Origin: a virus
IMG/VR virus record: IMGVR_UViG_3300025010_000005
Coordinates: 1 to 64,000 of that record
Length of the DNA stretch: 64,000 bases
Direction: 5' to 3' (one strand)
Under the pieces are notes generated by a model that made no database searches, was not told the DNA's origin, and saw only the letters and a list, made by a program, of their open reading frames with translations. The translations under genes were made by a program, and so were the position numbers. Every line of letters starts with the position of its first letter. Within the stretch, counting starts at the first letter, position 1. Below, one piece after another: positions 22,958-59,449 of the stretch.

Positions 22958-24157
22958 TAACAATTATAATATTCTAACATTTAAGTAAAATAATCTGTAG
23001 ACAGTGATATATGGAGGTCTACAGATATGCAAAACTCGAACATTGAAAATTCTATAAGAGAAAAATGGTTGGAACTTTATCAAAGCGGATTGTCTGGAAT
23101 TAAGATAGCTAATATGTTTGGAATAAATAACTGTGTTGTTTATCGTTATCTAAAAAATCATCCCGATTATAAACCTAGAACTACAAAAGAAACGGCTAGA
23201 TTGTATGAGGTTGATGATAATTTTTTCGACACAATAGATACAGAAGAAAAAGCGTATTGGCTTGGATTTATGTATGCCGATGGATTTGTAAATACACAAA
23301 GAAATGTTGTCGGAGTAACTCTTCACAATAGAGATATAGAACATCTTGTTAAATTTAAAAAAGCTTTAAAATCAACTTATCCAATTAAAACATATGAACT
23401 TAAAACATCATATACAACGAAAGAATCTTATTGTTGCAGACTGAGAGTTTTAAGCGATAAATTAAAAAGTGATTTAATAAAAAATGGGTGCGTTGAAAAT
23501 AAAAGTTTAATTTTAAAATTTCCAGACAAAACCATGGTTCCAGATAATTTAATTTGGCATTTTATAAGAGGTTATTTTGACGGTGATGGCAGTTTAACAA
23601 ATTGGAAAGGTTCACGTTGGAACATTAAGATTTGTGGAACATATGAATTTCTTGATGGAATTAGAAATAAACTTTTTGAATGTGAGATTGATAAGTATAT
23701 TTATAAAGAGAAGAGAAATGAAAAAAATAATTATACTTTAAATTTGGCATGCAATTTGGCAATCAAAATTACCTCAAAAATGTATGAAAATTCAACCATT
23801 TTTCTTGATAGAAAATTCAATAAATATAATGATATGTTAGAATATTATAATAGTCGTCTTAAAAAGTGATTTTTAAGAATATTAGCATGTGAATTGCTGG
23901 AAACCCCTTAGAGCCACAAAAACTACAAAGAAGTTGGAAACGACAATCTTGAATGTTTGAAAATTTTGTGGATTGGGCAATCAGCAGCGAAGCCGCTAAA
24001 TCATAAGATAAGCGGAACGTTCAACGACTATCCGTGGCTGGAGTAGAGTTCTAGAGAACTCGAAGTGCATGCTGCCCTAACAAGGGTAAAGATATAGTCT
24101 GCGCTTTAGGGAAACCTAAAGAGATATAACGGAATCGGTTATATCGTAACACAACGG
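22958..24157 (+). mobile_element. Group I intron (1200 nt) in dnaE
   Basis: Exon ends in U, intron ends in G; P AATTGCTGGAA, Q AATCAGCAG, R GTTCAACGACTA, S AAGATATAGTC; splicing restores PD-VDTD in frame. Confidence 0.92.
23027..23869 (+). CDS. Intron-encoded dual-motif LAGLIDADG homing endonuclease with N-terminal HTH
   Basis: YWLGFMYADG and HFIRGYFDGDG motifs. Confidence 0.9.
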   Translation: MQNSNIENSIREKWLELYQSGLSGIKIANMFGINNCVVYRYLKNHPDYKPRTTKETARLYEVDDNFFDTIDTEEKAYWLGFMYADGFVNTQRNVVGVTLHNRDIEHLVKFKKALKSTYPIKTYELKTSYTTKESYCCRLRVLSDKLKSDLIKNGCVENKSLILKFPDKTMVPDNLIWHFIRGYFDGDGSLTNWKGSRWNIKICGTYEFLDGIRNKLFECEIDKYIYKEKRNEKNNYTLNLACNLAIKITSKMYENSTIFLDRKFNKYNDMLEYYNSRLKK

Positions 24158-26056: not shown

Positions 26057-26092
26057 CAATGTTAAATCTATATTAAGACTCTTGACAACCTA

Positions 26093-26121
26093 TTGACAAG
26101 TATCTCTATATATAGTAGTAT
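26093..26121 (+). promoter_or_regulatory. sigma70-type promoter (second TTGACA at 26082)
   Basis: TTGACA-17-TAGTAT. Confidence 0.65.
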
Positions 26122-26191
26122 GGGGTGAGTTGCTTAATTCACCCCGGCCTATGGCCATTAAAGGGTCGGAGCAAGCGCTCCGACCCTTTTT
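26122..26191 (+). ncRNA. Candidate small structured RNA or attenuator leader
   Basis: Hairpins ggggtgagtt-gctt-aattcacccc, ggcc-tat-ggcc and terminator gggtcggagc-aagc-gctccgaccc-ttttt. Confidence 0.45.
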
Positions 26192-26210
26192 GATGTAAAG
26201 GAGATATACA

Positions 26211-37991: not shown

Positions 37992-38835
37992 GCTTGGGAC
38001 TATACTGATCGGTATATTACAGTCTTAGGATTTGAAAAGTGGACCCATATTTCAAATTATTGAGCGTGTTTTTAAATAAAGAAGAAAAAGAGAGAAGATA
38101 ATATTTAGTCAAATGATTGAAGAACGGAAGAAAAAGAGAAGAGAAATAAACATTAAGCGTTAATAACAACATATATTTGAGGTGTGTTGGAGGAATGAGA
38201 AGATTGAATGAAAATTTTGTTGAGTATTATAAAGAAATGAAAGAATTTTGTATGTTATTTTGTAAGATATATAAGAAAAGAAGAAAAATTGAAAGATAAA
38301 TATGTCCGATATGTTTTATTTTGGTTCTGCAAAAGAACTTCCTTCCATCGATTTATGGAATAGAACAAGACAAAAAAAATACACTTAGACTCTTTTTACA
38401 AGAATTTAAGCGTTATAGTTATTTTATATTATTATTCCCATATATTGATCTGTCTTATGGTCTCCTGCATGGGACTAGTCTCTTAACAATTCTTAATGTT
38501 AAGTTTTGTAAAGCTTCATTCATCGTTACAAACTACCCTCCATAGGACTATTCCCATTAGTTTTAAGGCGTGAATCGCTCAGGTCAAACTTGACCTAAAA
38601 ATGTTTTTATCGGCCTTAAATCATTTCTGACAAAACATTCAATATAAGGAAAAAACCGATGTTTTCGTTTTGAAGGATCGAGCGACAAGCATGGCGGAGT
38701 CCGATGGAGTTGTATATAAGCGAGGCGAAGTCTCTTTTTTTCCTGAAGTCGAGTAAACAAGTCGAGAGTCCAGGACTCTGCTATGTACCATAGTAAAGCT
38801 GGAAAAATTGATCTAATTTTGTTTTCTAAAACCCC

Positions 38836-38864
38836 TTGACAGGAGAAACGATCGGAGTTAATCT
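38836..38864 (+). promoter_or_regulatory. sigma70-type promoter
   Basis: TTGACA-17-TAATCT. Confidence 0.7.
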
Positions 38865-39007
38865 TGTTTCAAGTTCAAAGGGACATTGACAATTTGAGGG
38901 AAAACAAGCGTAACGGCGAAAGCCAACAAAACGCCATGCTATTATGTTATAGCCGTTTTCTCACTCATACCATAGCGCTCCAAGTGAGCGCGGAAAAGGA
39001 CTATCTA

Positions 39008-39625
39008 ATGGCTAAAGCAAATGACAACACCACCACCAAGCAAGCTCAACTCCAAGCCGCTATCGACAACGAAGCGATGATCAAGGCGGCCACTCAAGAG
39101 CCTAATGAGGCTCAGCAGGAAACGGAAAAGATCATGGCTGTCATCGCCAATCCGATCGAGTTGTTGCGCAACAAGAAAAAAGTGGCTTTGCAGGCGGAAA
39201 TTGACGAATTGAAGGCTTTGATGGTCGATCCTGAAGCGATCGATCAAGCAAGGGAAGACCTCGAATTGGCCGAGTCCAACTATAACACCGCCAAACAAGC
39301 CTACGATGCCCTCAAGGCCTCCAACCGTGACGCTGAAGTATATTTGAATCAGTTGACGGCCGACATGGGCAAGCTCAATGCTCCCATCTCAGTTCAAAGC
39401 GCACCCACTGGCTCCCGTCAAAGGACGGATAGCACTCAACTCCTCTCCAAGCTTCCCTCCACGTTCAAGCGTGGCGACATGAAGCAAGCGCTTGCCAACG
39501 TCAAAGGATGTGACGTGGACATGGTGAGTGATAACAGCGTTTCCGGCATGATCTACAAATTGGCGCATGGTGAGCGCCCGGTAATCCAACCCACCAACAA
39601 CTCCGGCGAATACTCCAAGGTTTAA
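39008..39625 (+). CDS. Coiled-coil protein with C-terminal winged helix; GC-richer than flanks
   Basis: ATG after AAAGGA; LPSTF..SVSGMIYKL..GEYSKV resembles 27266..27589; 31/60 G+C at 39301-39360. Confidence 0.75.
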   Translation: MAKANDNTTTKQAQLQAAIDNEAMIKAATQEPNEAQQETEKIMAVIANPIELLRNKKKVALQAEIDELKALMVDPEAIDQAREDLELAESNYNTAKQAYDALKASNRDAEVYLNQLTADMGKLNAPISVQSAPTGSRQRTDSTQLLSKLPSTFKRGDMKQALANVKGCDVDMVSDNSVSGMIYKLAHGERPVIQPTNNSGEYSKV

Positions 39626-39631
39626 CGCAAG

Positions 39632-39658
39632 GGACTCCCGAATGGGAGTCCTTTTTTT
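39632..39658 (+). terminator. Intrinsic terminator
   Basis: ggactccc-gaat-gggagtcc-ttttttt. Confidence 0.85.
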
Positions 39659-39761
39659 AACTATATATCCTCACAGACTCCTCACAGAAGTTATACGCTT
39701 CCTTTGTGTTTAAAGTCCGATTCGGGAGTCTTTTTTTTCTGTTTTTCTTGCTTAACATATA

Positions 39762-39790
39762 TTGACAACAGACTATGAACCTGCTATTGT
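39762..39790 (+). promoter_or_regulatory. sigma70-type promoter
   Basis: TTGACA-17-TATTGT with extended TG. Confidence 0.7.
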
Positions 39791-39823
39791 GTAGGAGTGG
39801 ACGCAAGGGAAAGGAGAAACGCA

Positions 39824-39982
39824 ATGACAATTAAGGAATTTAAAGCTTTGATGGTCAAGACGGCAGCCGAAAACAAAAACAATAAAATAATATTTAAAGC
39901 GTGTTTCGGGGCGTTAGAGTCCATTAATTTCGAGGTTGACTGGCTGGACGTAATTGAACAGTACAAAGGGAAGGGAGGCTAA
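39824..39982 (+). CDS. 52-aa monocistronic early protein
   Basis: AAGGAG RBS; followed by terminator ggaggc-taac-gcctcc-T9. Confidence 0.65.
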   Translation: MTIKEFKALMVKTAAENKNNKIIFKACFGALESINFEVDWLDVIEQYKGKGG

Positions 39983-40273
39983 CGCCTCCTTTTTTTTGCC
40001 TATATGTCAATTGACGGGTATATCATGGCACCTTCCATACAATCGCTTTAAACACCTCTCACAGCCTCAGGAAGGCCCCTTACATATGGCCATGCTACAA
40101 TCTATCATCCGACCAGGAGAGGCACCTTTACGACTCAACCAGGGTGCTTCTGCAACACGAGTCCAAAATAGGCCCCCTGTCGCAAAAATTTCGGGAGTCT
40201 GCATGTGGGTGGGGGCTGGATGGGTGACAATATATTAGTAGTATTTAACCGTTTGTCGGAATCGCTGACCGGA

Positions 40274-40609
40274 TTAAAACAAAGTAATTTCGACTAAGGC
40301 AATAAATTTTAGATCAAAAAATTTACCACTCAATCTTGTTTGTTCTGTTTTTATGTAATTTAATTTCTTCATTCTCCTAATATATCCTGCAATCTGGTTA
40401 AATGTATATTCTTCTTTGTTATAATTAAATTCTAAAAGTATATCTCTATAACTTTTTGGGTCTTCATTCTTTATAATTTGTAAAATTTTAACATATTTTC
40501 TGTTATAAGCATTATTTTTTAAAGAAATTTTTTGCATATTTGTCTCCTTTATACCGTTAACCACAAACGTTGACCGTAATCGTTTGTCACTTTTTATTTT
40601 ATATATCAC
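40274..40609 (-). CDS. Winged-helix DNA-binding protein
   Basis: KILQII..SYRDI..IAGYIRRMKKLNYIK; alternative start at 40537. Confidence 0.6.
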   Translation of the reverse strand: MIYKIKSDKRLRSTFVVNGIKETNMQKISLKNNAYNRKYVKILQIIKNEDPKSYRDILLEFNYNKEEYTFNQIAGYIRRMKKLNYIKTEQTRLSGKFFDLKFIALVEITLF

Positions 40610-40808
40610 GTCTCCTAATATAACAAATTAGAACTCTACATCTCCTATTTGATGTATTAGATTCATTTAAACATTTTCAGAAATTGTATAAGGTGTATTT
40701 GTACGTCTCCTGTTACAACTTAACCTTACAAAAAGAAGCCCCCTTTATGGAGGCTTCATCATATCTAAATGAATAAAACTTTTCGGGCAAAGCATATAAA
40801 CTTCTGGT

Positions 40809-41231
40809 TTATTTAACTCCAAGAACTCTACGACTATATCTACTTCTATATATGCCTCTGGAAACAACTGCTGATCTTCCCATATTATAGGCACATAAGG
40901 TTCTATGCCAATCTCCATTGAAGAACAAATTAAGTCTCTTAAGCAATCGAGCGCCAGCGTTAATATTGTCTTGAGGGTTATTCCACTTCTCTCCTTTATA
41001 GAAGTGATCTAATTTAACTTGCATCAATCCATATGCTTGACCAGAAACAACTGTTCTCCTAAAGCTTGATTCATACAAAATAACTCTTTTAATTATCTTC
41101 TCTGGTACTTTATATCTCACTGAAGCAGAATATATCTCTTTATTGTATCTGTCTCTTATATCTCCTGCATACACCTTTTCGGGTAAACAAATATTAAATA
41201 GTAAAACAATTAATAATATATATCTTAGAAT
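40809..41231 (-). CDS. Lytic transglycosylase (SLT) with N-terminal signal peptide; probable ATT start
   Basis: YESS, AYGLMQ, NINAG, AYNMG; upstream in-frame ILRYILLIVLLFNICLPEKVYA after AAGGAG. Confidence 0.82.
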   Translation of the reverse strand: MLRYILLIVLLFNICLPEKVYAGDIRDRYNKEIYSASVRYKVPEKIIKRVILYESSFRRTVVSGQAYGLMQVKLDHFYKGEKWNNPQDNINAGARLLKRLNLFFNGDWHRTLCAYNMGRSAVVSRGIYRSRYSRRVLGVK

Positions 41232-41344
41232 GATTATCTCCTTATTCTCTGGTATATCCGTTAAAAATAAAATAAACTCCTAACTATTATCTAGTTAAGA
41301 GTCTTATAAATCCCATATATCTCGTATAGTCTTCTTTTATAGTC

Positions 41345-41662
41345 TCCTACGTGAGTAGGATAACCAGGAAGGTTAAACTGAACTATCCCGTTGTCCCTCG
41401 TCTCTTTCTTTCATCCTTTGATGGTTTCACGAGGTTTTTTGGAACACCCGTTTATAAACATCAGAAAATGCCGAATAGTATTTTGGCACTATTCAGAAAG
41501 AGCGAGGAACAGCGGATGAAGTTGTACACCTCCACTTGATAGTTCAGATAACCTCTGGTTTTTGTTTGTTCCCAGTATAGGCCGATCTTCACTAGGTACT
41601 TGTCGTTGCCCCTGTCCCTACAGCCCAACGTGTTGAATTCTATTTCAACATTAAACTTGTAC
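41345..41662 (-). ncRNA. Candidate roughly 320-nt highly structured non-coding RNA
   Basis: Nested long-range stems (41362-41387 with 41538-41560; 41388-41409 with 41495-41515), several hairpins, late-promoter motif at 41668-41680, no credible ORF. Confidence 0.65.
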
Positions 41663-41673
41663 CATGTATTATT

Positions 41674-42114
41674 TTACATCTCTTTTGCTAATTCATCACA
41701 TCTCTCATTGTATTGGTTTCCAGAATGTCCTCTTACATATTGCCATGTAATATCCAAACCTTGAGTCTTCTGGTCTAACTCAATCCAAAGGTCTATATTT
41801 TTATATTTGGAGTTAGAATCGAATTGACCAATCCTCTTCCAGTTATGAATCCATTTTGTTATACCACTGATTACATACATGGAATCTGTATGAATCGTTA
41901 TAGGGATTGTTTTTATATCTAATTTGTTCATTACCAAGATTGCTGCTTTTAATTCTTCCCTATTATTTGTTGTATATGCAGATCGTTCACCTTTAAATTC
42001 TCTTTTTTGAATTGTAAAGTGTTCGTTTCTAAGTAATAATATTGCAGAATGATTTCCTGAACCGGGATTTCCCAAACATGATCCATCACAATATGCTTCT
42101 ATTTTAAAACTCAA
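41674..42114 (-). CDS. rnhA: Ribonuclease HI
   Basis: YCDGSCLGNPG, TTNNREEL, TDSMYV, KNIDLW, VRGHSG..NERCDELA. Confidence 0.95.
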   Translation of the reverse strand: MSFKIEAYCDGSCLGNPGSGNHSAILLLRNEHFTIQKREFKGERSAYTTNNREELKAAILVMNKLDIKTIPITIHTDSMYVISGITKWIHNWKRIGQFDSNSKYKNIDLWIELDQKTQGLDITWQYVRGHSGNQYNERCDELAKEM

Positions 42115-42157
42115 ATTTCCCCCTAATAAAAAGGCCAGATTTCTCTGGCCAATAAAT

Positions 42158-42400
42158 TTACTTGCTCTGGAATAACATACAATGGCATTGTCCGTTAAAC
42201 TGTATATTATCTTCTGAATCTTTACAAGGGCAAATATATTGTCTTCTACTAACCTCTGGAACTAAATCAATAACAATGCATGGACAATAAGCTCGCTTGT
42301 ATATTTTCTCGTTGTGTGCAAGTCCTTCAACGATTGTGTCATATACTTCTTCGTTTACTGTATATCCTTTTATTTCGGCATACTTCTTTATATTAAGCAT
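42158..42400 (-). CDS. Ferredoxin-thioredoxin reductase catalytic subunit-like protein
   Basis: CPC...CPC...CHC 4Fe-4S/disulfide signature; GL..N..Y...YCPC. Confidence 0.88.
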   Translation of the reverse strand: MLNIKKYAEIKGYTVNEEVYDTIVEGLAHNEKIYKRAYCPCIVIDLVPEVSRRQYICPCKDSEDNIQFNGQCHCMLFQSK

Positions 42401-45383: not shown

Positions 45384-45704
45384 ATGTATCCAAGAAAAAC
45401 ATCTGATTTGGTAAAAACATATTCGCTTGATTCTAGAATCAGATTAGAAACCGGATTAAATTCTGGTTCACTTCACCTTTACTTTCTTATCAAGAAATAT
45501 CAATATACTTACAATATCTCTTTGCGTCAATATTCTAAATTAATGGGAATATCATTAAGGGCTGTCGTGAGATTGATAAGACCACTTTATGCTTTGGGTT
45601 ACATCGAAGCAGAGTGTAAAGATCTTCAAACTTCCGGCAAACCAAATGTTATTAGCATTGTAAAGAATATTAGCCTTTCCGATTACGATGAAGATGGAAA
45701 TTAA
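45384..45704 (+). CDS. Winged-helix protein opposite to surrounding genes
   Basis: ISLRQYSKLMGISLRAVVRLI..L..LGYI..GKPN; AAAGGA RBS. Confidence 0.65.
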   Translation: MYPRKTSDLVKTYSLDSRIRLETGLNSGSLHLYFLIKKYQYTYNISLRQYSKLMGISLRAVVRLIRPLYALGYIEAECKDLQTSGKPNVISIVKNISLSDYDEDGN

Positions 45705-45937
45705 TTTCTTCGCTTTTCAATTAGATATTTAATGAAGTTAGTATATTCTGGTTGGAAACTAAGTTTGTACCAAGTTAACTCACAATCTTCGACAACATCC
45801 AAAATTGCCATATCTTCGTATTCAGACTTTTTATGCATTTTGACGTACACTTTACTAGAAAATTCTTTCAAAAGTTGCATAAGGAAAAGTTTTTCATAGT
45901 CATTGCGGATTTCAACATAGTCTGTTAGATCGTTCAT
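45701..45937 (-). CDS. Hypothetical protein
   Basis: AAAGGA RBS. Confidence 0.55.
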   Translation of the reverse strand: MNDLTDYVEIRNDYEKLFLMQLLKEFSSKVYVKMHKKSEYEDMAILDVVEDCELTWYKLSFQPEYTNFIKYLIEKRRN

Positions 45938-45992
45938 AATTCATTTCCTTTCTATATTTGTACTACATTTAATTTTCAAGGTTCTATTTAAA

Positions 45993-46002
45993 GTAAAATA
46001 AT
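45993..46002 (+). promoter_or_regulatory. Putative late promoter motif GTAAAATAAT
   Basis: Same motif upstream of other late units (22985, 47344, 51835, 41668-41677 minus; GTATAATAAT at 56204, 62436). Confidence 0.65.
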
Positions 46003-46055
46003 ATTAGATAGAATTTATTTTTGCAAAAAACTCATCAAATGTTATGGAGAGATAA

Positions 46056-47303
46056 ATGACAAATGAGCCATTTAAGTTAACCATCCCGATTACACGAGCG
46101 TATAAAAAAGATGGCAAGATGATGATTGACGGGGTTGCCTCTTCAACCGCTCTTGATACCTATGATACCATATTTGCGCGTAGTTGTCAAGAGAATTTTA
46201 GTATTCTTATCAACGAGTCAAGTGAATCAGATGACCCTATTCAACTAGAAGCCGAGCATAAAGGCGACGAAGAGCCGATGAATATCCTTGGCCCTATTCA
46301 AAGTGCATGCGTAACTCCAGATGATGAATTATTTATTGTTGGCCGCTTAGATGAAAAGAACCCTAAAGCGGTGTTTTACTATGATTTGTTAACAAATCCA
46401 GATCCAAAACTTGGTAGACCTAGAATGCTTGGCCTATCAATTAATGGTGTTGTCGAAGAGGCTCACTGGGAGTATCGTGAAGATTTACAAAGAAACATTC
46501 GAGTCTTCGATAAAGTCAAATTGCTTAAAGTTGGTATTGTACGTTATCCAAGTAATCCAAATACATATTTGGAAAAAATGATTAGAAGCGTTGATTGGGA
46601 CGCAATTGAGAAAAAGGAGATCGAGTTAATGTCTGATAATATCGAAACTGCTGTTGTGGAGGAAACTGTTGATGTTGAAATTCGTTCTGATGAAGTTGTC
46701 TCCGATTCAACCGATTCAACCGTTACAGAAACCGAAACCAGTGAAGAAGTAGAACGTGCTTGTAATTGTGATCCCGAAAAAGATTGTACCTGTAATAAAG
46801 AAGAAGTTATTGAAGAAGAACGTGCAATGGATACCAGCGATGTTGCAGTTCAAACAGAAGATGTTGAAGAAACTTGTGATGAACAACGATCTGAAGAAGT
46901 TGTAGAGACAGTTGAAGAAGAAGTTGTTCGTGAAGATAATATCGAAAAAATGGCTGAAATTATGGCAAAGATGATTTGTGAACTTAAAGACGAACTTACT
47001 CGCTCAATTGACGAACTCAAATCTAAAGTGGAAATTATTGAATCTGAAAAATCAGAATTGGTTGAGAGAGTTGCTGTTCTGGAAACCGAAAAGGTTGAAT
47101 TAGTAACAAGAATGGCTGTTATGGAAAAAACTCCCACAACTTCTCCTGGCGCTCAATTGGTTGGAAATGTTGTTCGTGCAGAAAAAAGACCTGCTAAGGG
47201 TTCACAAGCAGAATATGAATTACTTCTTCGCGAAGCAGAGGCTAAAGGCGATAAAGAAACAGTTAAGAAATTAATGATTCTTAATCTATTTAAAACCACC
47301 TAG
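46056..47303 (+). CDS. Prohead protease fused to acidic/coiled-coil scaffold
   Basis: IDGVASST.LD, EH, GLSING, V..PSNP; Glu-rich and coiled-coil C-half; upstream of capsid. Confidence 0.85.
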   Translation: MTNEPFKLTIPITRAYKKDGKMMIDGVASSTALDTYDTIFARSCQENFSILINESSESDDPIQLEAEHKGDEEPMNILGPIQSACVTPDDELFIVGRLDEKNPKAVFYYDLLTNPDPKLGRPRMLGLSINGVVEEAHWEYREDLQRNIRVFDKVKLLKVGIVRYPSNPNTYLEKMIRSVDWDAIEKKEIELMSDNIETAVVEETVDVEIRSDEVVSDSTDSTVTETETSEEVERACNCDPEKDCTCNKEEVIEEERAMDTSDVAVQTEDVEETCDEQRSEEVVETVEEEVVREDNIEKMAEIMAKMICELKDELTRSIDELKSKVEIIESEKSELVERVAVLETEKVELVTRMAVMEKTPTTSPGAQLVGNVVRAEKRPAKGSQAEYELLLREAEAKGDKETVKKLMILNLFKTT

Positions 47304-47313
47304 ATTGTTGTTA

Positions 47314-47340
47314 TGAGCGGACTTTATGTCCGCTCTTTTT
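47314..47340 (+). terminator. Intrinsic terminator
   Basis: gagcggac-tttat-gtccgctc-ttttt. Confidence 0.85.
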
Positions 47341-47461
47341 GATGTAAAATAATAGTATGACTATGGATAGGATGGAGTAATTAACCGTCCGACAAGAGCC
47401 TCCCTACTCTTCCATCTGTCTTTTTTTTATAGGGATTTTTGAAAGACATGGGGAGACAAAT

Positions 47462-48346
47462 ATGCCTATTAAATTTACTACCGAATATTTTAAAAATTTT
47501 GTTGAAAATAAATATCCGGGATATAGCATTATTGACGAATATAAAGGTGTTATTACAGAGATTAATTTTATCCACAACGAGTGTGGAACAATTTTTCTTA
47601 AAAAACCTCATAGTGCGATCAACAGAAATTGTTTTTGTCCTGTATGTTGTAAAAACACTATATTTGAAAAAGATTTATTTACAAAATGGCTTAAAAAAAA
47701 TAGACCTGATTTTGAGTTTATATCTGAATATACTGATAAAATTCGTAGAGTTGTTTTAAAACATAATTGCGGAAATTTACTAGATGTTAGTTATGGCTCA
47801 TTTAGAAGCGGAAAGGGTTGTCCAAAATGTAACGGTGGTGTTAGAAAAACTCACGAAGAATTTACAAAATGGATGCATGAAAATAGAAGCGATTATAAGG
47901 TTGTTGGTGTTTATAAAAACTCATCAACAAAAATTGAAGTCGTTCATGAACAATGTAAAAAATCTTGGTTTGTTTTGCCAGGGGATTTAATTCAATTTGT
48001 AAATTGTCCTCATTGTCACATAAGTAAAGGCGAACAAGAAGTAGAAAAATATTTAATTAAAAATAATATAAAATATGAGAGAGAATTTAAATTCAAAGAT
48101 TGTAAAAACATAAAAGAATTAAAATTTGATTTTTTGGTAAAATATAACGATGAAAATATTTTAATAGAATATCAGGGAATTCAACATTATGAACCAGTAA
48201 AACTTTTTGGTGGAATTAAAAAATTTGAAGCAAGTAAAAAAAGAGATTTAATAAAAAAAGAATATTGCGAACAAAATAATATAAAATTGATTTGTATAAA
48301 ATATAACGAATGTATTAGTAATAAATTAAATAAAGAATTTAATTAA
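47462..48346 (+). CDS. Free-standing putative homing endonuclease (Zn-ribbon repeats + PD-(D/E)xK/Vsr-like domain)
   Basis: Three H..CG..CP.C repeats; SKGE, FDF, IEYQGIQH, D..K..YC; very AT-rich. Confidence 0.8.
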   Translation: MPIKFTTEYFKNFVENKYPGYSIIDEYKGVITEINFIHNECGTIFLKKPHSAINRNCFCPVCCKNTIFEKDLFTKWLKKNRPDFEFISEYTDKIRRVVLKHNCGNLLDVSYGSFRSGKGCPKCNGGVRKTHEEFTKWMHENRSDYKVVGVYKNSSTKIEVVHEQCKKSWFVLPGDLIQFVNCPHCHISKGEQEVEKYLIKNNIKYEREFKFKDCKNIKELKFDFLVKYNDENILIEYQGIQHYEPVKLFGGIKKFEASKKRDLIKKEYCEQNNIKLICIKYNECISNKLNKEFN

Positions 48347-48476
48347 AATAATATACGTGTTAATCTTTTATTGAATTTCCACTTGAAAAAGTTTTGCGAT
48401 TCAATGTAAGCATAAATTAACATGAGATATGTAGTAGAAGTTTATTATTATTTTTTCTTACGAAAGGAAAAAACAA

Positions 48477-49394
48477 ATGTCTGATAAGTACGAACTAATT
48501 TTAAGAGCGCTCAACACAAGCGCAACAGCTTTACAACCTGAAGATCTTTCCAGATTAATGGAACTTATTACTCCCCGTGATGTTCCAATGTTTTCTCGCC
48601 TTGCTCGTTCCAAAGCAACCGGCCTTCTTCACGAGTGGGTAGAATCTTCATTAACAGCATCTTTCACCGCTGGTGCATATGCTGATGGTGGAATCCCTGC
48701 TGGTCATGATAACACCCACGTTCGTAAAGACAACAAGGTTATGTCTGTTGGTCGTATCGCTTCTGCTACCAACCTAATGCGTGCAGTTGACACCATCGGT
48801 GCTTCTGATGCATTGGCTCTTGAACTAGAAGAAAAAATGGTTGACATTATGCGCGTTATTGAATATTACATCTTCAATGGCGACCGCGACAACACAAGCC
48901 CCCAAGAGATGGACGGCCTTCTAAACATTATCACAACTGGTAATGGCGCTACAGAAATTGATGGCGTTTCTGGTTATCTAACTGAGGCCGTACTTCAGTC
49001 TGCTCTAGTTGGTTGTTATAACAATGGTGGTTCCCCTAACATCATCGTTGCTCGTCCAGAAGTTGCTCAACGTATTGCCAATTTCACAGACGATAAGATT
49101 CGTTTCAACGGTGCTGGTGGTGGTGCTGGTGGTGTTGGAGCCGAAGGTCTTCGTTACCTTAACCCATTTGGCCCTTCCCTAGATGTTATTCCTGTTCGTA
49201 GTTCTTTCCTACCTTCCGGTAATGTTCTAGTCCTAGACTCAAGCAAGATTAAGTTGGCCTTCCTTTCTAACCTAATCGAAATCCTTCCTCTTGCTATTAC
49301 CACAGACGCCGAGAGCAAACTACTTAAGGCTTATCTAACTCTAGAATGTCGCGCAGTTGCTCATCACGCTCTTATCAAGAACGTTGCTGATTAA
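48477..49394 (+). CDS. Major capsid protein (HK97 fold)
   Basis: P....A...HEW, E...FNGD..EMDGL; strongly biased codon usage; terminator after. Confidence 0.88.
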   Translation: MSDKYELILRALNTSATALQPEDLSRLMELITPRDVPMFSRLARSKATGLLHEWVESSLTASFTAGAYADGGIPAGHDNTHVRKDNKVMSVGRIASATNLMRAVDTIGASDALALELEEKMVDIMRVIEYYIFNGDRDNTSPQEMDGLLNIITTGNGATEIDGVSGYLTEAVLQSALVGCYNNGGSPNIIVARPEVAQRIANFTDDKIRFNGAGGGAGGVGAEGLRYLNPFGPSLDVIPVRSSFLPSGNVLVLDSSKIKLAFLSNLIEILPLAITTDAESKLLKAYLTLECRAVAHHALIKNVAD

Positions 49395-49410
49395 GACTAG
49401 ATTAAACTTT

Positions 49411-49441
49411 GAAGCCCCTCGAAAGAGGGGCTTCTTTTTTT
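49411..49441 (+). terminator. Intrinsic terminator after capsid; near copy at 62398-62422
   Basis: gaagcccctc-gaaa-gaggggcttc-T7. Confidence 0.9.
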
Positions 49442-49489
49442 GTTTGTAAAGTAATTTGTGAGTTTAACTTAAAATAAAAAGGAGTAAAA

Positions 49490-50101
49490 ATGTACATTAC
49501 TTACGAAGAATTTATTAATTCTCCTTATGGTGCAGAATATAATCCTGTATCTGGGTCTATTTTTGAAACAAGTGGAAATGTTGTAGACTTTCTTGAAAGT
49601 GTTTCTTCTATTATTGATTTATATTGTGGAAGAACTTTTGACATTGTTTTATATGAAGAAACTAAATATGGATTAAGTGGAAAATCAATTTTCTTAGACA
49701 ATATTCCTGTAACTGGAATTGTTTCTATTGAATGGTCAACTGGATTTGGCTCTTCTGGTGTGGTTTCACCCACTTCATATTTATTGCTTAAACCAGAAGG
49801 TAGAATCATTTCTCAATTAAGTTTAAAGCAAGATTTTCTATATACAATCAAATATCACGCCGGATTTTCTGTAATTCCAGATCCAATTAGATACGCAACA
49901 TTGGTTCTTGCAAAAACACTTACTCAATCTCTTGAATCTGGATCTCTTGGAATTCCTGATGGTGGAACACTTACATCATTCAAGTTTGGTAAGTTTGCAG
50001 AAGAGTATGCAAACTCTCAACAAAAATATACAGATTACGCCGAGGCGATACCGCCAACTGTCTGCGCCATCCTTAAAAAATATAGATATATGAAGGCATA
50101 A
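49490..50101 (+). CDS. Head-tail adaptor
   Basis: YIT.EE, S..ID.YCGR.F, Y.AGF..IP..I..A, IL..YR. Confidence 0.8.
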   Translation: MYITYEEFINSPYGAEYNPVSGSIFETSGNVVDFLESVSSIIDLYCGRTFDIVLYEETKYGLSGKSIFLDNIPVTGIVSIEWSTGFGSSGVVSPTSYLLLKPEGRIISQLSLKQDFLYTIKYHAGFSVIPDPIRYATLVLAKTLTQSLESGSLGIPDGGTLTSFKFGKFAEEYANSQQKYTDYAEAIPPTVCAILKKYRYMKA

Positions 50102-50103
50102 TT

Positions 50104-50496
50104 ATGAATCCATATTCGTTAAGATCAAAACTACACAAAAGAGTAATGGAAAATCTTGGTATTGCCACAAAAATTCTTAGAGCAAAAGAAGTTGCAAAAG
50201 ATTTATATGGCGAACCAATTGAAACTCCATGGCCTTTTGATGAATATATTTTAAAGATTGTTATTGATTCTGAAAAAATTGATCAAAAAAATTCATCAGT
50301 TGGTTCTGGCGCAGATCCCAAAAAAGAATATATTTATTTTTATTGCGATGGTGATTTTGATATTCGTGTTGGTGATAAATTAGTTTATCCTGCAAATTCT
50401 ACAAGTCAATGGTTTGTTGATTTCATTGAACCTGTTGTACTTCGTGGAGTTCCTATTATTTGTGAAGTCAAGGCATATAAAGATGATCGATATTAA
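50104..50496 (+). CDS. Head closure/stopper protein
   Basis: D.YGE..., DIRVGDKL; position after adaptor. Confidence 0.65.
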   Translation: MNPYSLRSKLHKRVMENLGIATKILRAKEVAKDLYGEPIETPWPFDEYILKIVIDSEKIDQKNSSVGSGADPKKEYIYFYCDGDFDIRVGDKLVYPANSTSQWFVDFIEPVVLRGVPIICEVKAYKDDRY

Positions 50497-51115
50497 AGTA
50501 ATTCCAAAAACGAGTAATAAAGATTTGCCTCATTTTATTCTTTTACTAAAAGACATTGATTTAAATATGCCAAGAATTGTTAAACTAGTTCTTCGTGAGA
50601 TCGCAAGAGCTTCTGTTAGAAAAGCACAATCTTATATTCGCGGAACAAGAAAACCAAAACCTTTCTCTGGTGGCCCAGGAGGTTCTATACCTTGGACTCC
50701 ATTATATAATATTGGCCCCAAAATGGGTGAATCAACAATGTTATGGAACAAAACTTCTCGTAAATCCAAAACAGGTAGTTCTCATCCATTATCTGATGAA
50801 GGTGGTTTGGAAAAGTCATTAAAGTTTTGGGATTTAAAATATGGGACTCATAGTGCGTCTGTAAAAGTTGGTATTTTGGATTCACATTATGCAAAAGTCG
50901 GCCTTAAGCAGGAATATGGTGGATCTAACCCATTAAAAGGACATAAAAGAATTCCTTCAAGACCTTTTCTTTTTCCAGCAATTATGGATGTTAAAAACGA
51001 TCCAAGATTGAAATCAAAAATAAAAAATAGAATTACTAGAATGTTAGAGGCATCAAGACAAACTGGTGCTATAAAAATATCAGAAGATATGTTTGAAGGT
51101 ATAGGTGAAGAATAA
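50483..51115 (+). CDS. Neck/tail completion protein
   Basis: PL.D.G.L..S, VG....YA...EYG, IPSRPFL.PA. Confidence 0.75.
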   Translation: MIDIKVIPKTSNKDLPHFILLLKDIDLNMPRIVKLVLREIARASVRKAQSYIRGTRKPKPFSGGPGGSIPWTPLYNIGPKMGESTMLWNKTSRKSKTGSSHPLSDEGGLEKSLKFWDLKYGTHSASVKVGILDSHYAKVGLKQEYGGSNPLKGHKRIPSRPFLFPAIMDVKNDPRLKSKIKNRITRMLEASRQTGAIKISEDMFEGIGEE

Positions 51116-51838
51116 ATGAGACATATAGAGGATTTAATCCTGCAAACGTTGGTTAAAATTATTTCGGATGAAGTTAGCATTTCTAGTGGAAATATGTGGC
51201 TTCTTAACCCATCATCTGAATTTGTCAATTCACAAGAAGGCCCGAATAGTGTTTCTAAAGTTTCATATCCTGTTATCGGAATCCATTATATGTCAGATGT
51301 TGTTTACAAATATAACAACTATGGCGAGAATAAATATATTTACGATTCATCTGGAAATGTTACTGAGTACTCTCCGCTTGGTGAAGTTAAAATGCCTTTG
51401 GGTATTTCGTTATACGCAAAATCAAGAAAAGATATGAGAGAATATGGGGACAAACTATATTCATTCCTTTTAAAAAATAAATTTATCGGTTTACAAAATG
51501 ATTGTGTTACTGGTGAATATTTTGCTTTAAAATTTTTGACAAAGAAAGATACTTATGAGGAAATGCCATATCAAGAAATTTATATTATTGAATGTGCATC
51601 AAGAATTTTTAAAGAGACATTTGCACCTAGAATTGATGAGATTGTGGTTACTATTGATACTGATATAGTTGACGGAGTATCTTGTACAAACGGCCCTGCA
51701 TACATAAATCCAGACGCAGAGATATTCGAACCAGGAACTATGTTGTTATATGACGAAACAGCCGGAGTTTATTATATTTTAGACTTTTTTAGAGATGGAG
51801 AAGCAACCTATATAGCTTCTGGTGCAAATTCGATGTAA
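51116..51838 (+). CDS. Tail terminator-like protein
   Basis: Position before sheath; YP.I pattern. Confidence 0.55.
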   Translation: MRHIEDLILQTLVKIISDEVSISSGNMWLLNPSSEFVNSQEGPNSVSKVSYPVIGIHYMSDVVYKYNNYGENKYIYDSSGNVTEYSPLGEVKMPLGISLYAKSRKDMREYGDKLYSFLLKNKFIGLQNDCVTGEYFALKFLTKKDTYEEMPYQEIYIIECASRIFKETFAPRIDEIVVTIDTDIVDGVSCTNGPAYINPDAEIFEPGTMLLYDETAGVYYILDFFRDGEATYIASGANSM

Positions 51839-51900
51839 AATAATATATGATGTTTTTTGTAAAATAAAGTAAGACCTTTTTTCTTGAGAGAGGAAACAAA

Positions 51901-53361
51901 ATGTTTGTAAACAGTTTCAATTCCATGATTACCCCAAACGTATTCCTTCGTGAAGCCGCTCCCGCTGCCGCAATTAGAGGTAGTGGTATCGGAACTATTG
52001 GTGTTGTTGTTCAGTCTATTCGCGGTCTTGTTGGCGTACCTACCGTTGTTTCCGATCTTTCAGACTATACCCGCAAGTTCGGTGACTATGATGTAGCAAT
52101 CAAAGACGATTTTATGTATGTTTACAATATGCTAAAGCAAGGCGCTGATAGTTTGATGGTAGTTCGCGCTGTAGACGGAACTGCTGTTGTTGCATCTGGA
52201 ACAGTTCAAGGAACTACATTCACACTGAAATCTGGCGGTACTTGGGGCAATGCCGTAACACTTACAATTGCTGCTTCTACCGTTTCAGGTTATGTCGATC
52301 TTTCATTCAAATATGGCGCTAAAGAACAATATGACTACAAGCAAGTGCAATTCACTTCTACTACTGGAACTCGTTATTTCAAAGATGTTATCGAAGCTGC
52401 ACCAGATGATTTCGTAAACGTTTTGGTCGCTGGAACAGTAAATCCTTCTGGTCAAGTTGTTTCCTTCGCTGGTGGAACAAACGGTACAACTGTTGGTTCT
52501 GCTGCTGCTGATAGCATCTATGTTGGTACAAATGCATCTGGTGGACTAACTGGTTTGGTTGCTTTTGAAGCAGAAGATTCAGTCAACTTTGTTTGTTCTG
52601 CTCGTAACACTGATACCGTTAACGCAGCCCTTCTTGCTCACGTTGCAATTGCCGGAGTAACACCTAGAATGGCAATCGTTTCACCTGCATCTGGAAAGAC
52701 TGTTTCTGAGATGGTAACTCTTATGGCAACCTACAATCAAGACCAAGTTATCATGACTTACCCTTGGTTGCAAGTTGTTAATCCTTACAACAACAAGAAA
52801 GAATATCACGCCCCTAGTTCTTTCTATGCCGGTCTTCTTTCAACACTATCTTATGAACAATCTCCTTCACGCAAACAAATCCTTGGAGTTATTGGTAGCG
52901 AGCGTTCATTAACTAATGCAGAAGTTGACACACTAACTTCTAACCGCGTTTCACCAATCACTCTTATCTCTGGTCAAGGTTTTGTAGTTCGTAATGGCTA
53001 TAACACTTCCTCAAATCCTGCACGTCAAAATATTACTCGTCGTCGTGCAGTAAACTTCTTTGCAACAGCATTTGAAGCTGGTTCACAACAATTCGTTTCT
53101 CGCCCACACACAGAAGCACTTCGTAACGATATTAAACGTGCTTTTGGTTCATTAATTGAGAATGAACTTGCTGTTGGTAAGATTGGCAATGTTAATGGTG
53201 GAAAAGTTTATGCCGTTAAGTGCGATTCCCAAAACAATCCTAATGAAGTAGTTCGCGCTAATCGTTGTATGGTAGATATTCAAATTAGTTTACTTGCACC
53301 AGCGGACTTCATCGCAGTTACTCTTGACGCAAGTGAAGCCAAAGTAGTTGACACTCAATAA
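51901..53361 (+). CDS. Contractile tail sheath protein
   Basis: P.V...E, G..G.P, YPW, PS...AG, V.CD..NN, PADFI. Confidence 0.93.
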   Translation: MFVNSFNSMITPNVFLREAAPAAAIRGSGIGTIGVVVQSIRGLVGVPTVVSDLSDYTRKFGDYDVAIKDDFMYVYNMLKQGADSLMVVRAVDGTAVVASGTVQGTTFTLKSGGTWGNAVTLTIAASTVSGYVDLSFKYGAKEQYDYKQVQFTSTTGTRYFKDVIEAAPDDFVNVLVAGTVNPSGQVVSFAGGTNGTTVGSAAADSIYVGTNASGGLTGLVAFEAEDSVNFVCSARNTDTVNAALLAHVAIAGVTPRMAIVSPASGKTVSEMVTLMATYNQDQVIMTYPWLQVVNPYNNKKEYHAPSSFYAGLLSTLSYEQSPSRKQILGVIGSERSLTNAEVDTLTSNRVSPITLISGQGFVVRNGYNTSSNPARQNITRRRAVNFFATAFEAGSQQFVSRPHTEALRNDIKRAFGSLIENELAVGKIGNVNGGKVYAVKCDSQNNPNEVVRANRCMVDIQISLLAPADFIAVTLDASEAKVVDTQ

Positions 53362-53431
53362 ACTTAAATAATTGTTGACAGGTTGCGGGGGTTATTCCCC
53401 GCAACAAAATCTTATTAAAAGAGGTGTGTAA

Positions 53432-53941
53432 ATGGGAAAAGCGAGAGTTTGCGGTAGCAACGCAAAAATTTATGTTTATGATGAAAAGCAAGGCGAAATT
53501 CTTATTGGTGAAGTTGATAAATTTAGCGCAAAAGACGCAAGTGATCTTAAAAAATATCGTTCACTCGGAACTGCTAAAATTGGTTCTCAAGCAATTTTTG
53601 GTGGTTGGGAAATTTCTTGTGATGGTGGTAAAGTCGATTGGAAGCTTGCTCAACTTATTCATGCTCAGGATGAAAGAATTGCCAATAGCGACTGTTCTGC
53701 ACAGTTTTTCGTGATTCAGACTGTTGATTATTTTGACGGCATCCAAGATGCTTATAGATACGATGAAGTAACATTCCATGGTTACGAACTAGATTCCCCT
53801 ATCGAAGAAATGACAGAAAAATTTAATGGTTTTAGTGGCGTTAATCGTGTTCAACTTACTGCTGCCGACGAAAGTTATAAAGAAGCAATTAAAACCAAAT
53901 ATAGTTCACTCGTTGACTATTTAATCAATAAGAAAGCGTAA
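53432..53941 (+). CDS. Tail tube-like protein 1
   Basis: Directly after sheath; GEVD.F, GW...GGKVDW.LA. Confidence 0.75.
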   Translation: MGKARVCGSNAKIYVYDEKQGEILIGEVDKFSAKDASDLKKYRSLGTAKIGSQAIFGGWEISCDGGKVDWKLAQLIHAQDERIANSDCSAQFFVIQTVDYFDGIQDAYRYDEVTFHGYELDSPIEEMTEKFNGFSGVNRVQLTAADESYKEAIKTKYSSLVDYLINKKA

Positions 53942-53954
53942 GGAGTGATACAAA

Positions 53955-54455
53955 ATGGGAACACCTAAACCAAGAGTTTTAGGCTCAAGAGCCACAATCA
54001 AAATTGGTGAAATTAAAATTGGTGAAATCGAAAAGTTTGGTGCAAAAAATCTCAATGAGTTAAAAAAATCTCAACCACTTGGAGATAAGACTGTTACCTC
54101 TCAAGTAATTTTCAAAGGTTGGGATCTTAACTTTGAAGGTGGAAAAGTTGATTGGGATCTAGCCCAAATGATTCATCTTCAAGACAAACAAATTACCTCT
54201 GGTGGACGTTCACCTTTGTTCGAAGTAACCCAAGAGATTCTTTATTATAACAAAACAATTGAATGTTGGACTTATCCAGAAGTTAGCATTCACGGTTACG
54301 AAGTCAATATTCCAATGGAAGAAATCACAGAAAAGTTTGATGGTTTCTGTGGAAAACCAAGAGTTGCTTCTTCTGTTGACACTACAACTGTTGATAGCAA
54401 AACTTCAATTGCAAGATATTTAAAAGATAATTCAAAGGATTATACAGTATTATAA
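53955..54455 (+). CDS. Tail tube-like protein 2
   Basis: GEIEKF, GWDLNFEGGKVDWDLA. Confidence 0.72.
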   Translation: MGTPKPRVLGSRATIKIGEIKIGEIEKFGAKNLNELKKSQPLGDKTVTSQVIFKGWDLNFEGGKVDWDLAQMIHLQDKQITSGGRSPLFEVTQEILYYNKTIECWTYPEVSIHGYEVNIPMEEITEKFDGFCGKPRVASSVDTTTVDSKTSIARYLKDNSKDYTVL

Positions 54456-54466
54456 GGATGAAATAA

Positions 54467-55045
54467 ATGGGAAAAGCCAGAATTCATGGCACAAATGTTC
54501 ATCTTTACTTTATGCCGCAAGTTCCGCTTGCGGCTTTTGAACTAGGTGAAGTGGATGACTTTAAAGCCAAATCAAGAACGAAAATTATTCACTCAAGACC
54601 AATTGGAAGTGTTATAGAAGGTGCTACATTACAATATGGTGGTTGGGATTTAACTTTTGAAATGGGTAAAGTTGATTGGAAACTTTGTCATATGTATTAT
54701 CTTCAAGATTTAGAATTAAGAGGAAATATTGTTCCTCCCAAGTATTCGATATTTGAAGAAATTCAACATTATGATGGAAGTATTGAACAATTTATATATC
54801 GAGATGTTACATTGTTTAATCTTGATATTAGTAGACCATCTCAAGAATCAAAAGAAACGATTCAAGGATTTTCTCCAATTCGTGAAATTGGGCCATTATC
54901 TATTCCTAACCTTGTTGGGATTGATGAACTAAAAATGGAAGCTTATTTTGCTGCCAAACTTGCTTTAGATGCAAACGGTGGCGCTTTAAACGTTGTAAAA
55001 AATACTACTGGAAGTATTGGAAAATGGATTTCGGGTGGTCAATAA
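54467..55045 (+). CDS. Tail tube-like protein 3
   Basis: GEVDDF, GWDLTFEMGKVDWKL. Confidence 0.7.
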   Translation: MGKARIHGTNVHLYFMPQVPLAAFELGEVDDFKAKSRTKIIHSRPIGSVIEGATLQYGGWDLTFEMGKVDWKLCHMYYLQDLELRGNIVPPKYSIFEEIQHYDGSIEQFIYRDVTLFNLDISRPSQESKETIQGFSPIREIGPLSIPNLVGIDELKMEAYFAAKLALDANGGALNVVKNTTGSIGKWISGGQ

Positions 55046-55695
55046 TGGGATTTTTAGATAATTTAAAAAACAATCTAATCAATGAAGTATTGTCTTCACC
55101 AAAACCAAGGGTATTATCTTCAAATGTAAAGTTAACAATTAGACCTCAAAATATGGGAATGTCCGAATATGATCAACACGATTCTATCGATGTTGGTGAA
55201 ATTGATACATTCAAAAAAGCAAAAGTTATTGGTGTTGTTAAAAAATTCAAACCTTATGGTGAAAAATTTGAAACAGTTATAACAGAAGATAACGGTTGGG
55301 ATATCTCTTTTACTTGTGGTAAGGTTGATTGGAATCTAGCATATTTTGTTTATATGAATGAAGTTGCGATGTTAGGAAATATAAAGGAAACGGATTCAAT
55401 TAATAGAACCGCATTTGAAAATATAATGGGACGACCTGTTTTTACAATCACAGAAGAAATTAAATTATATAATGGAAAAACAGAGATTTGGGAGTATCAA
55501 GATTTTGTCTTGCTTGGTTACGAATCAAACACAAATGATGACAATCAAGTTATCGTAGAAAGTGTAACTGGATTTGCTTCTCGCAGAGTTGCAATTGGAG
55601 ATATGAATCAAGATTTAGAATTATCTAAAATAAACAGTAGCGTTAGCAAAATTTTGTTAGCGTTGAAAAAGTCAGGAAAATATGGTTTACAATAG
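55045..55695 (+). CDS. Tail tube-like protein 4
   Basis: GEIDTF, GWDISFTCGKVDWNLA; TAATG coupling. Confidence 0.7.
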   Translation: MGFLDNLKNNLINEVLSSPKPRVLSSNVKLTIRPQNMGMSEYDQHDSIDVGEIDTFKKAKVIGVVKKFKPYGEKFETVITEDNGWDISFTCGKVDWNLAYFVYMNEVAMLGNIKETDSINRTAFENIMGRPVFTITEEIKLYNGKTEIWEYQDFVLLGYESNTNDDNQVIVESVTGFASRRVAIGDMNQDLELSKINSSVSKILLALKKSGKYGLQ

Positions 55696-55704
55696 GAGGT
55701 TCTA

Positions 55705-56016
55705 GTGTTAGAGAAGACTTTAAAAGATGGCACAAAGATTGTTATGAAAGAACTTTCTGCTCTCGAAGAAATGCTCGCCATTGAAATTATCAGCAAAGAT
55801 ATTGATGAAAGCAATGATATTAAAAATGGAATGCAACATCGCTTCGTAAGTTGTCTACTTTCAATCGTTAAAGTAGATGATGAAGATTTTATTGGCCCAA
55901 CCAATTTAGAAGAAGCTTATGCTTTGCTTGCAAATCTTCCTAGTAGAAAATGGAAACAAATTTTGGAAGTCCACGATGAGGTAAACTCAGACGAAGATGA
56001 GCTAAAAAAAAATTAA
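55705..56016 (+). CDS. Tail assembly chaperone (G)
   Basis: After tube genes; ends ELKKN over an A9 run. Confidence 0.75.
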   Translation: MLEKTLKDGTKIVMKELSALEEMLAIEIISKDIDESNDIKNGMQHRFVSCLLSIVKVDDEDFIGPTNLEEAYALLANLPSRKWKQILEVHDEVNSDEDELKKN

Positions 56017-56179
56017 TAGTTTAGCAGATAATTCTGTTTTTAAACAGTGTGTTTCCCTGGTTCAAGCTGGGTTTCCTTATAAAGTAGTTTTTGGAAATGA
56101 AAAACCAATGAACAGGATTTGGCGAAACGCTTCAATTATTGTGTTGAATGAATTAAATGGAACAGATGACGAGGATTAA
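56004..56179 (+). CDS. Frameshift extension of tail chaperone (T part, -2/+1 frame)
   Basis: A9 at 56004-56012; INSLADNSVFKQCVSLVQAGFPYKVVF...DDED stop 56177-56179; no own start/RBS. Confidence 0.7.
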
Positions 56180-56194
56180 TCCTCGTCTTTTTTT
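56168..56194 (+). terminator. Intrinsic terminator
   Basis: gacgagga-ttaa-tcctcgtc-T7. Confidence 0.85.
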
Positions 56195-56237
56195 ATTGTG
56201 AATGTATAATAATTTTTGAATGTAAAAGGAGTAAACA

Positions 56238-56861
56238 ATGATTAAGATTACAGATGCAAATGATGATAAACAATCGTTTACATTTTTAACAAGGGAATAT
56301 CCAGAAGAAATTAAATTTGATAAAAAAGCAACAATTAATCATATTGAATATGCTGGAGGATTCCAAACAAATCAATTAATTGGAGTATATAATCAACCTC
56401 TTGATTGGTCTGGATTGTTTTATGGAACATATAATGGTGAAAAAGGAACAATCTTAGCAAACCACAAAGCAAATACACTTCAAGGATTTGTTGGTAAAGT
56501 TGTTAACATAGAAATTAATGAACATAAAAAAATGTATCTAGTTGAATCTGTAGAATTGAAAGTAAAAAATCCAACAAATGTTGAATACTCGATTAAATTA
56601 GTTCCTCATCAAACAATGGAAAAAATTAAAATAGATGCAAATTCTACAATGAGAGTTGAATTTAAACCAGAGGATATTTCTAATGCTGCCGCTAACGCTG
56701 GAAAAAAGGGTGGTAAATTAAATTCAAAAGATGCTAAAAAAAAGGTTAAAGATGCCAATAAAGAAATTGCAAAAAAAACTGGCGGACATGATAAAGAATT
56801 TTCAGAAGGAACAAATCCTAAACCAAAAACACCAAAAAAAAGAAATACTATTTATTTATAA
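56238..56861 (+). CDS. Putative tail tube initiator/baseplate-proximal protein
   Basis: F...EYPE.I.F..H...GG...Q..G...WSG.F..Y.I.L pattern; in tail module. Confidence 0.55.
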   Translation: MIKITDANDDKQSFTFLTREYPEEIKFDKKATINHIEYAGGFQTNQLIGVYNQPLDWSGLFYGTYNGEKGTILANHKANTLQGFVGKVVNIEINEHKKMYLVESVELKVKNPTNVEYSIKLVPHQTMEKIKIDANSTMRVEFKPEDISNAAANAGKKGGKLNSKDAKKKVKDANKEIAKKTGGHDKEFSEGTNPKPKTPKKRNTIYL

Positions 56862-56871
56862 GGGGAAATAA

Positions 56872-59448: not shown

Positions 59449-59449
59449 A

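Follow-up and report, generated by a model that had tools for sequence, protein, structure and literature searches.

In this phage, the gene for RNase HI and the gene for a soluble lytic transglycosylase (SLT) are separated by a stretch of about 400 nt that is ORF-free and matches no known RNA family. Its predicted fold is real and statistically exceptional. We tentatively suggest that this stretch serves the SLT endolysin gene as an untranslated 5' leader, made late in infection, and as a leaky attenuator, while also being a separate transcription unit. Judged from its sequence, the RNA probably has a regulatory role as a leader and belongs to a type not yet described, whose sequence family is novel and whose kind is familiar. 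The window that we analyzed is the first 64 kb (64,000 nt) of a complete 100,704-bp IMG/VR virus record, and the features discussed here are as follows, in the order in which they are met on the minus strand.

41674-42114, minus strand: RNase HI gene with a TTG start (Pfam PF00075, 1.4e-37; PHROG 531).
41668-41680, minus strand: late-promoter-like motif GATGTAAAATAAT, a recurrent 13-mer directed into the element.
41598-41664, minus strand: 5' domain with hairpins 41650-41631 and 41630-41604; its GGUAC/GUAC closure is optional.
41571-41596, minus strand: hairpin CCUAGUG/UACUGGG (41596-41590 with 41577-41571), from the predicted fold.
41362-41560, minus strand: core domain, a branched hairpin, from the predicted minimum free energy (MFE) structure.
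41345-41360, minus strand: small hairpin UCCUAC-UCAC-GUAGGA, from the predicted fold.
41320-41345, minus strand: tandem 13-mers AGACUAUAAAAGA / AGACUAUACGAGA, between the core and the terminator, read from the sequence.
41262-41304, minus strand: intrinsic-terminator-like site, an AU-rich hairpin of 12-13 bp (41304-41274) followed by the U-tract UUUAUUUUAUUUUU.
40809-41243, minus strand: SLT lytic transglycosylase gene with revised start (Pfam PF01464, 2.7e-16).

The fold of this region is very stable on both strands. A 391-nt stretch gives -126.3 kcal/mol on the minus strand (z -7.26) and -112.9 kcal/mol on the plus strand (z -6.48). Nearly all of the folding signal sits in the 199-nt core at 41362-41560. 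On the minus strand the core reaches -83.1 kcal/mol with a z of -8.49, and its centroid is identical to the MFE structure; on the plus strand its z is -6.94. None of 200 shuffled sequences was equally stable. We also folded every 200-nt window of the whole 100.7-kb genome and regressed the energy on G+C content; the minus-strand window at 41351 was the top outlier. The second most structured region of the genome, at 26060-26200, is structured on both strands and carries tandem TTGACA promoters and two GC-rich hairpins preceding a small gene, and its sequence is unrelated to that of the 41362-41560 element. The same scan gave a folding-energy outlier on both strands at 89700-90000 of the record, beyond the window, with z values of about -3 to -3.5.

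The core is organized as two long stems with hairpins, as the preliminary description had proposed, and both stems are present in the sequence and in the predicted MFE structure. The outer trunk has 22 bp (6+6+10, with small bulges), pairs 41362-41387 with 41538-41560 and contains the perfect 10-mer CTGAACTATC/GATAGTTCAG. The inner trunk has 20 bp and pairs 41388-41409 with 41495-41515. Within this framework the predicted fold has three hairpins, at 41516-41535, 41473-41494 and 41412-41470. A three-way junction bears a side hairpin whose 8-nt loop, GUGUACAA, includes the palindrome UGUACA, and both apical hairpins of the core carry a CCAAAA hexaloop. Outside the core, the CCUAGUG/UACUGGG pairing that had been described on the minus strand is also recovered in the predicted fold. 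This hairpin is minus-strand specific through two G-U pairs and is followed by an A-rich linker at 41570-41561. The 5' domain was described as two hairpins closed by GGTAC/GTACC. The two hairpins are found, but the closure forms solely when the domain is folded by itself, and the domain as a whole is weakly supported (z -1.9 to -2.7). The tandem 13-mers AGACUAUAAAAGA/AGACUAUACGAGA have no further copies in the genome.

The fold shows a moderate bias toward the minus strand. For the whole unit, the minus strand gives -137.3 kcal/mol and 14 G-U pairs and the plus strand -111.4 kcal/mol and 9, a difference of 26 kcal/mol. The 42-bp trunk is entirely Watson-Crick with no G-U pair at all, and the six G-U pairs of the core are all in the peripheral hairpins. 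Since a trunk without G-U pairs contributes nothing to it, the strand call comes from the peripheral hairpins, the terminator and the flanking signals.

Because such a trunk is equally good on both strands, the element could also be a palindrome at the level of DNA, or what is left of a selfish element that forms hairpins (MITE-like), and its RNA would then have no function under selection. The pure Watson-Crick trunk is what this explanation expects, the plus strand is strongly structured too (core z -6.94), and the sequence is an orphan with a composition unlike that of its surroundings. We nevertheless regard it as quite improbable. The peripheral hairpins and the terminator depend on minus-strand G-U pairs, and the element is framed exactly by the promoter motif and the terminator. 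In addition, it is single-copy in the genome, with no paralogous element elsewhere, direct reading of the sequence reveals no target-site duplication at 41362/41560, and neither exact-word scans of other collections nor blastn of phage and plasmid records found copies. With neither multiple copies nor a target-site duplication, we rejected membership of a MITE or palindromic-repeat family.

The element does not appear to encode a protein. Under table 11, table 4 and a code with TAG=Q alike, the stretch has no ORF of 60 codons, in agreement with the earlier statement that the gap has no credible ORF, and since none opens under code 4 or TAG=Q, we ruled out a hidden ORF of that kind. The short frames have no ribosome-binding site, PHROG match or hydrophobic peptide. 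A small toxic hok-like peptide was ruled out, as there is no hydrophobic short frame with a ribosome-binding site. Rfam 15 gave no match in 41255-41690 (436 nt) at E<=10, nor at gathering scores in wider scans; this search took in 6S, pRNA, RNase P, tmRNA, group I/II introns, GOLLD/ROOL/OLE and riboswitches. ARAGORN found no tRNA or tmRNA in the element. The view that it is none of tRNA, tmRNA, RNase P or intron is therefore sustained. A retron was ruled out, since the genome has no reverse transcriptase. A group I intron does occur elsewhere in the window, at 23834-24121, where it interrupts the DnaE-type polymerase gene (Rfam, 96.8 bits). Like bacterial 6S RNA, the element has an extended hairpin of about 200 nt with paired 5' and 3' ends. 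Unlike 6S RNA, it lacks a central bubble open on both sides, since the junction is fully paired on its 3' side, and it has no Rfam match.

Searches for homologues of the element were all negative, which is because the lineage is an orphan. By sequence comparison, the tail sheath has at most 25% identity to that of any GenBank phage. In IMG/VR, a search with the sheath found a single relative, a fragment of 28.7 kb whose sheath is 62% identical. That fragment has a G+C content of 45.6%, its synteny is confined to the structural genes (45384-61010 of the phage studied here), and it lacks the element. The phage itself has a G+C content of 34% genome-wide, and its genome contains a contractile-tail structural module, a DnaE-type polymerase gene and one tRNA (ARAGORN). 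At the nucleotide level, blastn against GenBank phages and plasmid records gave no match to the element. Exact-word scans, which detect close relatives alone and could let distant homologues escape, found no copies in the genomes of 185,579 species, in IMG/VR or in JGI metagenomes. Across exact-word and gapped scans of metagenome, viral and genome collections, we obtained either nothing or chance matches that were rejected by covariance models. Covariance models built from the core and from the 5' domain matched the element itself and nothing else.

The neighboring proteins lead to the same result. Among 5.8 billion proteins, the SLT protein has no relatives and the RNase H has none above 48% identity, which is the identity of its nearest relative. 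The RNase H's own cluster represents the same phage, which is present in about 13 contigs. A protein scan of JGI metagenomes had no matches. The three RNase H loci from IMG/VR belong to unrelated phages.

The 5' edge of the unit is marked by the motif GATGTAAAATAAT, which overlaps the last codons and the stop codon of the RNase H gene (GAG ATG TAA) and points into the element. The preliminary description had called it a late-promoter motif, and its distribution in the genome bears this out. The exact 13-mer occurs at three sites; the other two, at 47341 and 51832 on the plus strand, are ahead of late genes, and the 51832 copy immediately precedes the sheath gene. Copies that differ at one position at most are found 25-75 nt ahead of genes at 45991, 56202, 62434, 66747 and 71949, and those before structural genes usually come directly after a terminator. 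At this threshold, we observed 11 sites in the genome, compared with 4.3 +/- 1.8 expected from Markov simulations. The recurrent form of the motif is (A/G)TGTA(A/T)AATAAT. From this sequence pattern, a late-gene promoter of the -10-only type is a credible identity for the motif. We sought a phage sigma factor that would explain it, and none was recognised. A genome-wide AGACTATA motif was not supported in a search of the genome.

The 3' end is marked by the intrinsic-terminator-like hairpin, which has -14.2 kcal/mol, near the stability of two neighboring terminators, and is minus-strand specific through two G-U pairs. With the motif at one edge and this site at the other, the unit extends from about 41680 to 41262 and would give an RNA of about 400 nt. 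The extent of about 320 nt given in the preliminary description was thus too short.

Downstream of the terminator-like site, the SLT gene appears to have been annotated too short. Its listed start is a GTG at 41174, and its frame stays open farther upstream. There, a Shine-Dalgarno sequence AAGGAG at 41243-41238 is followed, after six bases, by an AUU (ATT) start codon at 41231, which is probably the true start. The revision adds 19 residues, LRYILLIVLLFNICLPEKVYA|G, which form a typical signal peptide and suggest a Sec-exported endolysin. We searched the genome for seven endolysin families (SLT, Phage_lysozyme, Amidase_2, Amidase_3, GH25, Peptidase_M15_4 and CHAP), and SLT was the only match. 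Since it is the only match, the SLT gene product is probably the phage endolysin, and thus would be needed late.

Given the revised start, only 18 nt lie between the end of the U-tract and the SLT ribosome-binding site, which leaves the gene without its own promoter. Consistent with this, no sigma-70-like minus-strand site is found in that gap. Therefore, the SLT gene must be transcribed through the terminator. Other terminators in the genome are normally trailed at once by a new late motif, whereas none follows 41262-41304. The sole late motif feeding the SLT gene precedes the structured element.

Where the minus-strand gene block ends, three terminator-like sites form a cascade, at 42133-42150, 41262-41304 and 40735-40757, and each is followed by one further gene, namely RNase H, SLT and a 111-aa ORF, respectively. 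For RNase H and SLT, there is no promoter between the preceding terminator and the gene. Directly upstream of RNase H, the minus strand encodes at 42158-42400 an 80-aa protein homologous to the catalytic subunit of ferredoxin-thioredoxin reductase (Pfam, 8.4e-17). Beside the block, at a convergent junction, lies a G+C-rich island at 38500-40300, with up to 55% G+C against 34% for the genome, which contains a 253-aa ORF with no Pfam match.

We suggest the following model for the leader. Late in infection, RNA polymerase would initiate from the late-type motif at the end of the RNase H gene, and transcription would cover the weak 5' domain and then the very stable 199-nt branched hairpin. The majority of transcripts would end at the AU-rich intrinsic terminator, 18 nt ahead of the endolysin ribosome-binding site, and endolysin mRNA would come from the read-through fraction alone. 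In this way, the leader and terminator would hold the Sec-exported wall-degrading enzyme at a low level or delay it, and the terminated RNA of about 400 nt would build up as a by-product. The 42-bp near-perfect duplex would be an RNase III-type substrate, and a cut there would part the RNase H message from the endolysin message, setting their stabilities. Transcription of the stretch, use of the motif as a late promoter, partial termination and a role for RNase III are all inferred.

Several lines of evidence support the leader reading. These are the fold statistics, the recurrent 13-mer at the 5' edge, the terminator-like site, the revised SLT start, the lack of a late motif after 41262-41304, the position of SLT as the sole endolysin-family match and the folding preference for the minus strand. 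Other observations count against it. A simple attenuator would need far less than a 199-nt hairpin. The genome has a second case of motif plus leader, at 47342, where the fold is not significant. Furthermore, RNase H follows the terminator at 42150-42133 with no promoter between them; since this gene, too, is behind a promoterless terminator, read-through may be usual in this gene block, in which case the leader may have no special role. A riboswitch-like antiterminator leader was rejected, as the duplex search gave no mutually exclusive structures. In that search, the arms of the terminator paired with upstream sequence at -8 to -13 kcal/mol at best, and without specificity.

The position of RNase H also allows an explanation in which the element belongs to the gene upstream. 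It would then be a 3' element of the early operon, namely an RNase III site or 3' stabilizer for the RNase H message in the style of lambda sib or the T7 R sites. The element starts at the RNase H stop codon, RNase H itself is promoterless and read through from upstream, and the long duplex trunk would be suitable. As in the T7 R sites and lambda sib, a long imperfect duplex lies between co-directional genes and is read through from upstream. We consider this very unlikely, however, because the late motif would place a 5' end downstream of RNase H, and because known RNase III sites, which are hairpins of about 60 nt, are much smaller than the 199-nt branched domain. In contrast to the T7 R sites and lambda sib, the element is three times larger, is branched, and has its own promoter motif and terminator.

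These same boundaries raise the alternative that the unit is a stand-alone gene for a trans-acting phage ncRNA (an "RNA moron"), whose stable product of about 400 nt acts through its loops. Such an RNA might bind or titrate a protein, or oligomerize, and expression of SLT would be incidental read-through. We find this somewhat unlikely. It agrees with the unit having its own promoter motif and terminator, with a G+C content of 41% compared with 34% for the genome, and with a well-defined fold whose centroid is the MFE structure. The repeated loops (two CCAAAA hexaloops and a self-complementary UGUACA loop) and the fact that antiterminator logic was not found also fit. Yet no homologues were found and so there is no covariation, no partner is identifiable, and the element abuts a promoterless gene, which favors a cis role. 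CCAAAA hairpins are no genome-wide theme either, as a search of the genome did not support one.

A more specific form of this idea seems to us unlikely, namely that the unit encodes a large late phage ncRNA (about 400 nt) of a new kind, with its own promoter and terminator, that acts in trans and is more than a leader. We would say the same of the mode of action that it could have, in which the rigid 42-bp trunk displays the two CCAAAA loops and the UGUACA loop for self-assembly or for capture of a host or phage protein. The element resembles phi29 pRNA, GOLLD, ROOL and OLE in being a phage- or prophage-borne structured RNA, and it would be pure conjecture that its UGUACA loop could self-associate. 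It differs from these RNAs in size and architecture, and it has no Rfam match at E<=10.

The neighboring RNase H gene had also suggested a pre-primer like ColE1 RNA II, in which the R-loop of the transcript is trimmed by RNase H to prime replication. The element adjoins rnhA and is followed by AT-rich DNA, and like RNA II it is structured and several hundred nt long, with RNase H at hand. Even so, we give this explanation scarcely any credence. The promoter motif is of the type that precedes structural (late) genes and not early ones, the transcript is ended by a terminator, the RNase H is an ordinary HI enzyme, and there is no evidence of an origin. Unlike ColE1 RNA II, the element combines a late-type motif and a terminated transcript with gene adjacency as its sole link to RNase H. 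A replication origin was rejected on GC skew, since the cumulative skew has no inflection at the element. Of the roles listed in the preliminary description, a leader that times the lysis enzyme fits the anatomy best.

The closest parallel to the leader reading is the late region of lambdoid phages. It is established for PR' that a promoter, a terminated leader and the lysis gene follow one another, and in Stx phages the product of the terminated leader is a regulatory sRNA, StxS (PMC7547250). As in lambda PR'/6S/tR', the element combines a promoter, a non-coding leader and an intrinsic terminator just upstream of a lysis gene, all of which are consensus-level predictions in our phage, and it is predicted to give a terminated short RNA as a by-product. 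The lambda endolysin is also a transglycosylase. There are clear differences. Lambda has a single PR', whereas the -10-only type motif of this phage serves many late genes. The leader here is about twice as long as the lambda 6S leader and is dominated by the 199-nt hairpin, and the upstream gene is RNase H, unlike in lambda. In addition, the Q antiterminator families PF06530 and PF03589 are absent from the genome, with positive controls for both that worked; a search with the Q family PF06323 had no match either, though it lacked a working control. Because no Q antiterminator family was found, the element is not a member of the lambdoid PR'/6S/tR' system.

With one sequence from one orphan lineage, the element is a well-framed candidate and not a discovery. 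If the leader reading is true, a non-lambdoid myophage of the virulent type gates its sole recognizable endolysin by a promoter-proximal terminated leader. Logic known from lambda would then have been rebuilt from unrelated parts, with an RNA domain of unusual size and stability. Such a case would be a further indication that structured leaders before lysis genes recur across unrelated phages, and the element would offer a concrete candidate RNA for the control of lysis timing.
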